Shown one piece after another: positions 729-14,090 of a stretch of 27,769 nt of DNA. How positions within the stretch are numbered: position 1 is the stretch's first letter; every line of letters begins with the position of its first letter. The position numbers and the translations under genes are program-made. The notes beneath the pieces were generated by a model. The model did no database searches. It had not been told where the DNA came from and was given only the letters and a program-made list of their open reading frames with translations. Source of the stretch: Nanobdellota archaeon (GTDB lineage: Archaea; Nanobdellota; Nanobdellia; Woesearchaeales; JAHWHD01); NCBI GenBank assembly GCA_034722435.1, contig JAYENX010000046.1, forward strand, positions 3,169-30,937, written 5' to 3'.

Positions 729-1643
729 TCAAGAATATAATTCCTTTACAACAGTTGTTGCGTAGCTCCCTTTAGGGAGTTGAAATTCTAAAATTTGTTT
801 TGTATTATTATAATTAGAAACAGTAATAGATGTATCTATAAACATGTTTCTTAAGTCGCCTTCAGCAGATATTGCCGGAATTTGTTTAATGATAAAATCT
901 CTAAATGTAAGCTCTTCGTTATCCATTATAGTTTTCATAATTTCGTTAATATCGGACTCCTCAGTACCGAAACCAATAATTGCAATTTTTTCTTGTTCAA
1001 TACCTTTTTCAATCATCCTTTCGACAGTTAAGTTCCATAATAAAGATTGATAACTGTGAACGTACAACAAAAGAATTCGTCTAGGGATTTGTCTTAAAGC
1101 GCCAATGTAATCTCCAGGATGTTCTTCTAAATGACGTGTCAACCTTGGCTCTCCTTGAATTAACAAAGCTGCTTGCTTAAACTGTTTTTTTACAATGTAC
1201 TTACCTATTTTAGGGTTATTTGTTGAAAAACGTTGTTCACCAAAATAATTAGGAATCTTGATATGTTCAACATTAACAGGATTATCAGTATCAACAACAA
1301 TCCTGAACTTGTTCCCAATTAAATTTCCTAAAGAAATAGGGGTATCTCCGTAACCGTGGAATTTAAGTTCAATATCTTTAATATCTAATGACTCAACCCT
1401 TTCCTTTTTTATGTTCTTCAGAGAAATCAATTGTAAAGTTATAGCTTTTTTATCTTTAGCACCTGCGTAACCTACCTGTCTAAGTTTTAATTTTAACTTT
1501 CGGGCAATAATTTCGACGGCTTTTGAAGTTGTATACTCTTTCTTTTTCATCCAATAGTAAGAATAGGGACCTGAATCTTTAGGTTCAATATTAGTTACTT
1601 CTTCTACAACGAAATCTTCAGGTGATTGTTTTATTTTATACAT
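729..1643 (-). CDS. truD: tRNA pseudouridine(13) synthase TruD/Pus7, short form
   Basis: IKQSPEDFVVEE, catalytic GYAGAKDKKAIT, GNKFRI, PNYFGEQRF, LYVHSYQSLLWN, FQLPKGSYATTVVKE. Start placed at the second Met (1643, MYKIKQ), where the family motif begins. Confidence 0.92.
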   Translation of the reverse strand: MYKIKQSPEDFVVEEVTNIEPKDSGPYSYYWMKKKEYTTSKAVEIIARKLKLKLRQVGYAGAKDKKAITLQLISLKNIKKERVESLDIKDIELKFHGYGDTPISLGNLIGNKFRIVVDTDNPVNVEHIKIPNYFGEQRFSTNNPKIGKYIVKKQFKQAALLIQGEPRLTRHLEEHPGDYIGALRQIPRRILLLYVHSYQSLLWNLTVERMIEKGIEQEKIAIIGFGTEESDINEIMKTIMDNEELTFRDFIIKQIPAISAEGDLRNMFIDTSITVSNYNNTKQILEFQLPKGSYATTVVKELYS

Positions 1644-3048: not shown

Positions 3049-3277
3049 GCGCCTGTAGCCTAGTCTGGCGACTGGTTACGCTCAGTCGATTAACTTCGCA
3101 AAGCGAAGTTGAATTCGAATTACGAATTCAGCAAAGTGCGACAAATGAGTGTACCAACGGATAAATAAGGCACCAGCCTCCTAATAATTTAAGAGTAAGC
3201 TGGGGACCGGGGGTTCGAATAGCTAACGATTTCGGCAACACCTGAGATGCGGAGCTTCGAAAGTCCCCTCAGGCGCG
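3049..3277 (+). tRNA. tRNA-Arg(CCU) with three introns (exons 3049-3068, 3165-3183, 3198-3219, 3264-3277)
   Basis: Joined exons give a 75-nt cloverleaf: GCGCCTG TA GCCT AGTCTGGATA AGGC A CCAGC CTCCTAA GCTGG GGACC GGGGG TTCGAAT CCCCT CAGGCGC G, with perfect acceptor, D and anticodon stems, A20 and G73. Each junction falls in a BHB-like motif. Confidence 0.9.
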
Positions 3278-11792: not shown

Positions 11793-14090
11793 TTAACCAA
11801 TAAAATTCCTATCCATCTGTTCCTTGATCTCTTTTGCTTTTGCCCTCTTGAATGTATCCCTGAGAGAGTTATATGCTTCGCGAATCTCTTTAGTAACAGA
11901 ATTTTTCACCTTTTCAAGAGCTTGATCAAAATGTACGAGTTTAATTTCTTTAGCTTTCATATCTTCTCTCAGAGCGGCGATTGCAGCTTCTCTACAGACC
12001 CCTTCAATATCTGCCCCGACATATCCTTCGGTTTTATCGGCAAGCTTTTTTATATTGACATTTGCAGCAAGAGGCATTTTCTTAGTGTGTACTTCAAATA
12101 TTTTCTCTCGAGTTTTTTCATCAGGTACGCCTGCATGAATAATCCTATCAAATCTGCCTGGACGAAGTAAACCCGTATCGACCATATCGGGACGGTTAGA
12201 AGCAGCAATAACAACAACATCGTGAAGTTCTTCAAGACCGTCCATCTCTGTTAGAAGTTGATTAACAACCCGTTCAGTAACATTAGAATCATGGCTCATA
12301 CCCCGTTTAGGAGCAATGGAATCAATCTCGTCAAAAAATATTATTGTTGGAGAAGTCTGTCGTGCTTTCTTAAAAACTTCTCTTATTGCTTTCTCAGATT
12401 CGCCAACCCATTTACTGAGCATCTCAGGACCTTTCACGAGTATAAAGTTTGCATCAGATTCATTTGCCACGGCTTTTGCAAGTAATGTCTTGCCTGTACC
12501 AGGAGCTCCGTAAAGAAGAATACCGCGCGGAGGTCTGATTCCAAGTTTAGTAAAAGAATCGGGATGGTTAAGAGGCCATTCTACGGCCTCTTTAAGTTCT
12601 TGTTTAACAGTGTCAAGACCTCCAATATCATCCCATTTTATATTAGGAATTTCAACAAAAACCTCTCTCATTGCCGAAGGTCTAACAATCTTTAAAGCAT
12701 TTGTAAAATCTTTCTGCGTAAGGATAAGTTTTTCAAGAACCTCGTTAGGGATTGAAGTTTCTTCAGAAAACTTTAAGTCAGGAAGAATTCTTCTAAGAAC
12801 GATCATAGCAGCTTCCTTACATAATGCAGACAAGTCAGCACCTACAAACCCGTAAGTGATATTTGCAAGTTCTTTTAAATTTACATTTTTAGCAAGCGGC
12901 ATGTTTCGAGTGTGAATTTTTAATATATTGAGTCTACCCACTTTATCAGGAACGCCGATCTCAATCTCTCTATCAAATCTACCAGGTCTCCTTAAAGCAG
13001 GGTCAAGGGAGTTAGGAATATTGGTCGCCGCAATAACTACGACTTTACCTCGAGATTTAAGACCGTCCATGATAGCGAGAAGTTGTGCGACAACTCTTCT
13101 TTCGACTTCACCTTTCATCTCTTCACGTTTAGGAGCGATAGCATCTATTTCGTCAATAAAAATAATTGAAGGAGCATTTTGTTCAGCCTCTTCAAATTTT
13201 TTCCGAAGATTTTCTTCTGATTGACCATAGTATTTAGACATAATCTCCGGACCATTAATTACAAGAAAGTGCGAATTTGTTTCATTAGCAACTGCTTTTG
13301 CAAGTAAAGTTTTACCAGTACCGGGAGGACCGTGTAATAAAACGCCTTTAGGTGGTTCAATACCTAACCTTTCAAAAAGTTCAGGATGTTTTAAAGGAAG
13401 TTCAACCATCTCACGAATTTTTTTAATCTCCTCATTAAGACCGCCAACATCTTCGTAAGTAACATCAGGCACTACCTCATCTTTAAGTTCAACAGTTTTG
13501 GAACTTACAATAATTTCAGTTAAATCGGTTATGATTACAGGTTGTTTAGGGTTTGTGTCTGCGACAATAAATTTTAGGTCAGAAAAACCTGCAAAACCCG
13601 AGGAAGATAATTCGTTAACAAATTGGTTAAACATGTCATCAAATGGTGAACCGGATAAAGATGTTTTCCTTGTTCGAGCGCCACCTAAACTTACTATATC
13701 ACCCTTTACGATTGCTCGCCCTAGAAGTCCACGTTTAAAAGTTTCAGGAGAACCCCTAACAATAACACCTTTAGTTGCAGGTGCAATAGTTATTTTTTTT
13801 GCTTCTTTGACTTCAACCTTTTTTGCTTTGACAATTTCACCAATTCCAGTCAAAGCATTTCGTCTAATAATACCATCCATACGAATTATATTAAGACCAA
13901 GATCTCCAGGATATGCGCGATCAGCAATTGCTACAGTTTTTCTGTCGCCTTCAAGTTCAACAATATCACCCGGCTTTATACTCATCTTACGCATATAATC
14001 AACGTCAATTCTAACAATACCTTTATTCACATCATCTTGTACTGCTTCTGCAACTTTTAAACTGATATCTTTAGTTGTTTTATTTTCCAT
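11793..14090 (-). CDS. cdc48: Cdc48/VCP/VAT AAA+ ATPase
   Basis: N domain ([10 protein letters not shown]), D1 [25 protein letters not shown]2 [22 protein letters not shown]. Confidence 0.97.

Follow-up and report, generated by a model that had tools for sequence, protein, structure and literature searches.

The origin of a long D-loop intron

The tRNA-Arg(CCU) gene of a Nanobdellota archaeon occupies positions 3049-3277 (+) of the 27,769-nt stretch of DNA analysed here (the window, whose numbering is used throughout) and is interrupted by three introns. An earlier note on this DNA had proposed that the intron in the D-loop conceals a fourth, separately spliced intron, and that a competing hairpin acts as a two-state switch on maturation of the tRNA. 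The question raised by this locus is whether 3069-3164 is one intron or an intron within an intron. Below, G numbers denote genomes (G000 being that of the window), L numbers loci and C numbers contigs. When 3049-3068, 3165-3183, 3198-3219 and 3264-3277 were joined (75 nt), ARAGORN returned a tRNA-Arg(cct) with stems intact, whilst the gene was missed by both ARAGORN and Rfam gathering-threshold scans of the window. At the outer borders of the D-loop intron the bulge-helix-bulge (BHB) motif is relaxed. Its central helix H pairs GUCU (3063-66) with GGAU (3159-62) and includes two G-U pairs, the bulges are GGC (3067-69) and AAA (3163-65), the outer helix h has 2 bp and the inner helix h′ has 1 bp, followed by an internal loop and then a long helix.

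We consider it probable that 3069-3164 is a single BHB intron of composite origin that would be excised in one step, the splicing endonuclease EndA cutting at 3068/3069 and 3164/3165 and the ligase RtcB joining the exons. The 5′ end of the intron (3070-3087 and the following GA) would be the near-invariant core of a mobile element found in DPANN archaea, those of Woesearchaeota type among them. Where it lies in a tRNA gene, the element would close on itself through a helix, P1, that is also the inner helix of the splice motif. Two hairpins, hp1 and hp2 (3092-3129), would represent a separate module at a recurrent hot-spot just behind the core hairpin. The GUCG/CGAC helix and its AAA bulge, on which the proposal of a nested intron was built, would be a lineage-specific by-product resembling half a splice motif, formed once the usual 3′ partner of a GCGAC box had been lost in this lineage.

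Structure of the D-loop intron

Minimum-free-energy folds of 3049-3277 and 3060-3170 reproduced the structure described in the earlier note exactly (z = -5.9 and -4.4, respectively). Pair probabilities were mostly above 0.95 for the long helix (3073-3084 with 3146-3156) and for GUCG/CGAC (3085-88 with 3139-42), the exceptions being 3073-3156 (0.80), 3076-3153 (0.49) and 3088-3139 (0.77). The coordinates proposed for the long helix were right, although T3077 had been dropped; the helix has 11 bp, with T3077 as a 1-nt bulge. Both hp1 (3092-3110) and hp2 (3111-3129) are perfect hairpins, as had been described. The inner bulges fared differently. AAA at 3143-45 is a true 3-nt bulge, with a helix on either side, whereas AUU at 3089-91 is a segment of a multiloop and not a bulge, as there is no inner helix h′ beyond it. 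The competing hairpin CGACUG/CAGUCG (3069-74/3083-88) had a probability of 0.004 in the full pre-tRNA, and in the isolated intron the fold containing it was only 1.7 kcal/mol less stable (-33.2 vs -34.9).

A nested intron would require EndA to cut first at 3090/3091 and 3144/3145, releasing 54 nt, and then to remove the 42-nt remainder, an order of events that we judge quite improbable. The inner motif is nevertheless present in correct BHB geometry: a BHB scanner written for this analysis returned an intron at 3091-3144 with H GUCG/CGAC (4 bp, no G-U), a 3-nt 3′ bulge and an outer helix h of 8 bp. In the same result the inner helix has h′ = 0 and the 5′ site lies in the multiloop, making this a relaxed bulge-helix-loop (BHL) motif. 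An inner motif with an 8-bp flank was found in only 0.3% of dinucleotide shuffles, whilst 13% contained one flanked by 5 bp or more. Comparable half-motifs, at varying places, occur in 5 of 12 real related introns of the family described below. The inner motif thus exceeds chance against shuffled sequence but not against real relatives.

Orthologous introns at the same site

Orthologous tRNA-Arg genes were found by means of the 20-mer of exon 1 and BLAST. Their exons are identical or near-identical to those of the window. The D-loop intron is absent from L215, L218, L220 and L221 and from a tRNA-Arg(UCU) gene (L216), in which TCTGG is directly followed by ATA(A/G)GGC; the splice junction is therefore fixed at 3068|3165. 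Other orthologues carry an intron at the identical site, of 21 nt in G001 (same genus as G000), 43 nt in L217 and L219, 91 nt in L097 (public record CAZFSZ010000008.1) and 129 nt in G002 (same family as G000). The BHB motifs of G001, G002 and L097 are in the same register as that of the window, and the short intron of G001 has a good one (h = 4, h′ = 5). A 5′ segment, (U/C)(A/G)ACUGGUUACGCUC(A/G)GU, is common to the window, L097 and G002. The 3′ ends are related too, reading (A)AAUGAGUG in the window and L097 and GAGAGGUG in G002, followed by GG(A/G)(U/C)AA. Two hairpins were present only in the window and G002; L097 has the core but a plain box, ACAUGCAA, at that point and no hp1/hp2.

This series bears directly on the nested intron. 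Among orthologues with introns of 0, 21, 43, 91 and 129 nt, none lacks exactly 3091-3144, as the nested proposal had led one to look for, and none consists of the outer 42 nt. Moreover, the GUCG/CGAC and AAA arrangement is absent from the orthologous introns of G002 and L097. In G002, CGAC forms part of a hairpin (GACUCC/GGAGUC), and the multiloop follows directly on the long helix. One observation is in favour of the inner site: in G001 (L004 1486-1506, compared with window 3069-3145) 77 nt are missing, beginning at the outer 5′ splice site and ending 1 nt beyond the inner 3′ cut that had been proposed. We discounted this near-coincidence as evidence for the inner 3′ site, as the endpoint of the deletion is 1 nt off and the remainder of the 21-nt intron has diverged.

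Further differences were seen around these genes. In G002 (L002 1364-1775), exon 1 and the 5′ part of the intron are tandemly duplicated ahead of the full tRNA-Arg gene, which also has a long anticodon-loop intron with a C-box-like UGAUGAUGA. Tandem partial cores (TGGTTACGCTC, three times) stand right behind the intron-less tRNA-Arg(CCU) gene of L215 (~12740-12890) and are followed by a full element; composites of this type recur in other genomes (L016, L059, L083). To judge by eye from the gene downstream, the tRNA-Arg locus of L097 looks syntenic with the window. The tRNA-Asn gene has a T-loop intron in G001 (L211 ~1440-1560, minus strand) and none in G000 (L210 150-245). D-loop intron contents also differ between the congeners G000 and G001, whilst sites and 3′ ends are kept. 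As far as these gene comparisons go, the differences between the two congeners indicate rapid intron turnover.

A family of small elements in DPANN archaea

The intron 5′ end belongs to a family, the DPANN ACUGGUUACGCUC intron-like element, which is small, non-coding and gene-less and of which we collected 73 distinct copies in DPANN archaea. Window positions 3069-3087 match the family core RACUGGUUACGCUCRGUY, preceded by C, at 19 of 19 positions. When the 96 nt were used as a BLAST query, their first 21 nt were matched at 95-100% in at least 36 of 401 genomes of the order, a lower bound since up to two candidates were scored per genome; the matches fell in many families and were often multicopy. 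A pattern scan of public genomes found at least 120 loci. Among the matches listed, 57 continue with the box GACACGCAA, and all of these are archaeal, the titled records being labelled Woesearchaeota, Nanobdellota/Nanoarchaeota, Nanohaloarchaea, Asbonarchaeaceae, an ainarchaeum and third-party-annotation (TPA) metagenome-assembled genomes (MAGs) of "Methanosarcinales". The other 63 listed matches, and all 32 viral hits, were rejected as chance matches; none of the viral hits has the extended core. TPA MAG contigs labelled 'uncultured Methanosarcinales' that bear the DPANN element include L097, L047, L049, L082, L084, L087 and others, and these labels are probably wrong.

The core folds as a hairpin that is 100% paired in alignment A2. 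In the 73 copies its positions 1 and 18 form A-U in 55, G-C in 15 and G-U in 3, with no mismatches. Clean motifs mark the family BHB introns in tRNAs, which are 75-95 nt long and occupy D-, anticodon- and T-loops. An alignment of nine such introns revealed a four-part fold. P1 (ACUGGUU with an AACCAGU-like strand) is 96.6% paired with one-sided changes only. Each of the 6 pairs of a variable hairpin shows compensatory changes, as do 2 of the 5 pairs of a 3′ stem-loop (GC-UC-NNN/NNN-UC-GC). In 500 shuffles the observed family covariation was never reached; it speaks for the core hairpin, hairpin B and stem-loop C. P1 is the inner helix h′ of the family splice motif and overlaps the bases of the core hairpin. 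In the window it persists as UGGU(U)AC paired with GUACCA, the outer 2 bp having been lost. Of the box that follows the hairpin (family box GACACGCAA), GA stands at 3088-89, whilst the CACGCAA part, displaced by hp1/hp2, reads AGCAA at 3130-34.

The alternative hairpin of the earlier note is this core hairpin. It is real, conserved and covarying, and it excludes the splice-competent helix. As a switch, the hairpin would form first during transcription and block both splice motifs until the 3′ strand displaced it, so timing tRNA maturation or excision of the element. That it is transcribed ~60 nt ahead of its competitor, shares bases with P1 (here the long helix) and is so little disfavoured in the isolated intron all fit such a role, as does the finding that core position 1 tracks position 18 rather than its P1 partner. 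However, its equilibrium probability in the full pre-tRNA is very low, as given above, no ligand, protein or condition presents itself as a trigger, and the intron-less orthologues argue that the tRNA needs no such control. The competition is moreover generic to the element family, and the hairpin is no less conserved in copies that lie outside tRNAs and lack a splice motif; it is therefore more likely to serve the element (mobility, recognition or another function) than regulation of tRNA-Arg. We take the competition between hairpin and P1 to be real and family-wide, and find its use as a maturation switch unlikely.

A second context is that of insertions of 50-130 nt flanked by direct target duplications of 15-45 bp; such duplications are seen in ~27 of 75 copies. 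These duplication-flanked copies target the starts of protein genes and, in both orientations, the 5′ as well as the 3′ ends of tRNA genes. Because the target is duplicated, one intact gene copy always remains. A consistent BHB motif was not found in them. G000 itself has a second, duplication-flanked copy upstream of a tRNA (L210, G000:C31:35400-36100, ~278-385), in the order 21-nt copy of the tRNA 5′ end, element, full tRNA gene; the corresponding site in G001 is empty, with a 9-nt spacer. Two other tRNAs of G000 have minimal D-loop introns (n = 2) made of the P1 hairpin only. One, on C36 (L013 ~1490-1515, minus strand), is 24 nt long and reads UGACUGGU-UUU-ACCAGUAGGAUAA; the other, on C31 (L210 ~405-435), is 30 nt long. 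Their ends are those of the 96-nt intron (5′ GACUGG, 3′ GGAUAA/AGGCA). A third context is a ~300-bp miniature inverted-repeat transposable element (MITE) with terminal inverted repeats ATGTAATAAG and target duplications of 9-10 bp, which encodes a highly structured RNA with the same core in it. At least 7 copies of it occur in one Woesearchaeota MAG (L072 3295-3594; L110, L074, L067, L107, L122, L149).

Rfam E-value scans of 22 element-bearing loci recovered host tRNAs only; neither the element nor the MITE RNA nor the hp1/hp2 repeat matched a family. Other identities were considered and rejected. Derivation of the ~75-nt element from a tRNA was suggested by its 7-bp P1, UA and D-arm-like GCUCAGUUGA, but the tRNA covariance model misses it at E-values up to 10. 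No matching boxes were found for a C/D or H/ACA guide, a CRISPR-repeat-like unit, an omega-RNA or guide, an IS200/605 end or an HUH origin hairpin. G000 contains no TnpB and no reverse transcriptase, and only a 78-aa fragment of a Y1 transposase (IS200/IS605 TnpA-type).

A two-hairpin module at an insertion hot-spot

The point just behind the core hairpin receives inserts repeatedly. In L074, compared with its same-genome paralogues L072 and L110, a 45-nt two-hairpin insert stands precisely between GUUGA and CACGCAA. Unrelated two-hairpin inserts occupy the same point in L031 and L156, and the inserts of the window and G002 are also found there. The hp1/hp2 module itself occurs elsewhere. It is identical over 24 of 24 nt in G026, and in G317 it forms, in 7 copies, the tip of a ~150-nt repeated structured RNA (L198-L204, L200/L017), whose closing helix is CAACAAUGACG.../...CGUCAUUAUUGUUG and in which a GGGG/CCCC stem replaces GUCG/CGAC. 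BLAST of the inner 54 nt against G000 gave no further copies.

Behind the module, the window sequence AGCAAAGUGCGAC (3130-42) corresponds to the family CGCAA(U)GUGCGAC, which may be compared with CGCAAUGUGCGAC in L071 and CAAGUGCGAC...GUCGCAU in L025 and L026. In L025, L026, L069, L071 and G002 the GCGAC stem finds its partner in a GUCGC or GUCCC that lies downstream, beyond a hairpin. This partner is missing in the window, and CGAC therefore pairs with the GUCG of the core instead. The two-hairpin block is thus separable and occurs in other contexts, in keeping with the composite intron of the earlier note, yet the separable unit as delimited by comparison is ~3090-3130 and not 3091-3144. The BHB scan found no splice motif flanking ~3090-3130.

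Splicing machinery of the host

G000 (1.30 Mb, 60 contigs, 94.5% complete) encodes a splicing endonuclease with PF01974 (101.9 bits) and PF02778 (57.6 bits) in one open reading frame (EndA, G000:C58:50280-50903), and an RtcB ligase (566 bits). This EndA is single and alpha-type, closest to the alpha enzymes of N. equitans (E = 1.2e-35) and M. jannaschii (alpha4). A beta paralogue was not found in G000, and the protein is without the six extra residues that N. equitans alpha carries in the loop before the catalytic His. Cleavage of relaxed motifs has been tied to (alpha-beta)2, epsilon2 or loop-bearing enzymes (PMC5829648). A single alpha-type EndA of this kind would argue, if weakly, against cleavage at the inner 5′ site, which has no h′. 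The force of this argument is limited, since the rather relaxed outer D-loop motif has to be processed by that enzyme too. Together with the absence of the motif from G002 and L097 and the 5′ site without h′, it speaks against the fourth, separately spliced intron. ARAGORN with intron search found only 13 tRNA genes in this 94.5%-complete genome; most of its tRNA genes probably carry interruptions at non-canonical positions that hide them from standard finders.

Several points weigh against a single composite intron excised in one step. With two G-U pairs in H, h = 2 and h′ of 1 bp, the outer splice motif does not guarantee efficient one-step cleavage, and an inner motif with a perfect 4-bp H and an 8-bp flank is rare in shuffles (0.3%). 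The search pattern fixed core positions 2-17, and invariance there is partly an artefact of retrieval. The comparisons with G001, G002, G206 (L031) and G208 (L023) concern unpublished genomes, whilst those with L097 and the metagenomes are public.

The weakness of the outer motif could also be read as decay. The insertion and the loss of the GCGAC partner might have weakened it to the point where splicing of tRNA-Arg(CCU) is poor or fails altogether, with another tRNA-Arg reading AGG. The outer BHB is indeed the weakest among the orthologues, and a UCU tRNA could read AGG by wobble. Against decay, the four exons give a tRNA accepted by ARAGORN, they have scarcely departed from those of the orthologues, the promoter-like and terminator-like flanks are intact and the other two introns have good motifs. 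We regard a decaying gene as very unlikely.

Coordinates of the gene and its introns

The features of the gene are collected in Table 1. Close homologues of the 44-nt T-loop intron (3220-3263) were seen in the T-loops of other G000 tRNAs (contigs C25, C16, C36) and in G007; the intron at 59/60 looks like a member of a second, separate intron family.

Table 1. Parts of the tRNA-Arg(CCU) gene and of its D-loop intron, in window coordinates.
Feature	Position	Strand	Basis
Exon 1, tRNA positions 1-19	3049..3068	+	ARAGORN on spliced 75-mer; identical 20-mer begins intron-less orthologues
D-loop intron after G19, 96 nt, relaxed BHB	3069..3164	+	Intron-less orthologues; same register in G001, G002, L097
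Family core hairpin RACUGGUUACGCUCRGUY (alternative hairpin of the earlier note)	3070..3087	+	95-100% matches, covariation
Long helix, 5′ strand, partner 3146-3156; equivalent of P1, the h′ helix of family BHB introns	3073..3084	+	Pair probabilities 0.49-1.0
GUCG paired with CGAC 3139-3142; basal stem of hp1/hp2 three-way junction, H helix of the proposed inner motif	3085..3088	+	Pair probabilities 0.77-0.98
hp1 (3092-3110) and hp2 (3111-3129), two-hairpin module at the hot-spot of the element	3092..3129	+	Comparison with L097, G026, G317
AGCAAAGUGCGAC, remnant of CACGCAA box and GCGAC stem box, usual 3′ partner missing	3130..3142	+	Comparison with L071, L025/L026, G002
AAA bulge (3143-45) and long-helix 3′ strand (UGAGUGUACCA)	3143..3156	+	AAAUGAGUG common to L097 intron
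Exon 2, positions 20-37, anticodon CCU 3180-82	3165..3183	+	ARAGORN on spliced product
Canonical 37/38 anticodon-loop intron, 14 nt, boundary ambiguous by 1 nt	3184..3197	+	
Exon 3	3198..3219	+	ARAGORN on spliced product
T-loop (59/60) intron, 44 nt, strict BHB: H UUCG/CGAA, h = 5, h′ = 2	3220..3263	+	BHB scan
Exon 4, including discriminator G3277	3264..3277	+	ARAGORN on spliced product

Meaning and comparison with known systems

How archaeal tRNA introns arrive and grow is an unsolved problem; when the tRNA introns of Asgard archaea were surveyed in 2026, no general route of arrival emerged (bioRxiv 10.64898/2026.10.13.758758). The present locus offers a clear snapshot of intron turnover, with the D-loop site empty or filled by 21, 43, 91, 96 or 129 nt among close relatives. 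Long introns would here consist of a widespread element and an add-on module. Alleles with and without the intron, a core of defined sequence and a hot-spot within the element are thereby on hand, each of them open to experiment. The core sequence gave no hit in a full-text search of the literature; we found no published description by sequence or topic, and no Rfam family. A more far-reaching possibility is that both the conserved competition between 5′ hairpin and P1 and the internal half-motifs are functional. The DPANN elements might then be a new class of archaeal mobile introns, whose alternative folds choose between excision (including stepwise, nested excision) and a mobility-competent state and which spread with long target duplications and no element-encoded protein. 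We hold this to be unlikely.

A nested, separately spliced intron would, if true, be the first for BHB introns in tRNAs; the evidence argues against it. As a concept, an intron within an intron with sequential removal recalls the twintrons, the nested group II/III introns of Euglena plastids (mentioned in PMC8393795). Those introns, however, are self-splicing or spliceosome-like and their sequential splicing was shown experimentally, whereas the nesting here would be evolutionary, through insertion of a module, and sequential splicing finds no comparative support. The inner motif does share the hBH-L form, with one proper bulge and the other site in a loop, with the relaxed BHL motifs of broad-specificity EndA (PMC5829648). 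Unlike the documented BHL substrates, which are conserved and lie at exon-intron borders, it is internal and lineage-specific, and occurs beside a single alpha-type EndA.

In Caldiarchaeum subterraneum a tRNA gene was disrupted by an integrating, recombinase-encoding element of 1.8 kb (Sugahara et al. 2012, PMC3293823). The same order of 5′ tRNA fragment, element and full tRNA gene was seen here in G002 (L002), G000 C31 (L210), L040, L069 and L082, although these elements are 50-130 nt long and encode nothing.

Besides this integrating element, the closest published parallel is with the tRNA introns of Thermoproteales, for which transposition was proposed (Fujishima et al. 2010, as summarised in PMC4090602). 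These introns too are protein-spliced, lie in D-, anticodon- and T-loop positions and recur as very similar sequences in different tRNAs and positions; their BHB is partly local exon sequence, and the mechanism of their spread, described there as unknown, is thought to act at the DNA level. The elements reported here differ in having DPANN hosts, a near-invariant 5′ core of ~27 nt with its own covarying hairpin and an internal insertion hot-spot. Moreover, they are also found outside tRNAs, at the starts and ends of protein genes and tRNA genes, with target duplications of 15-45 bp.

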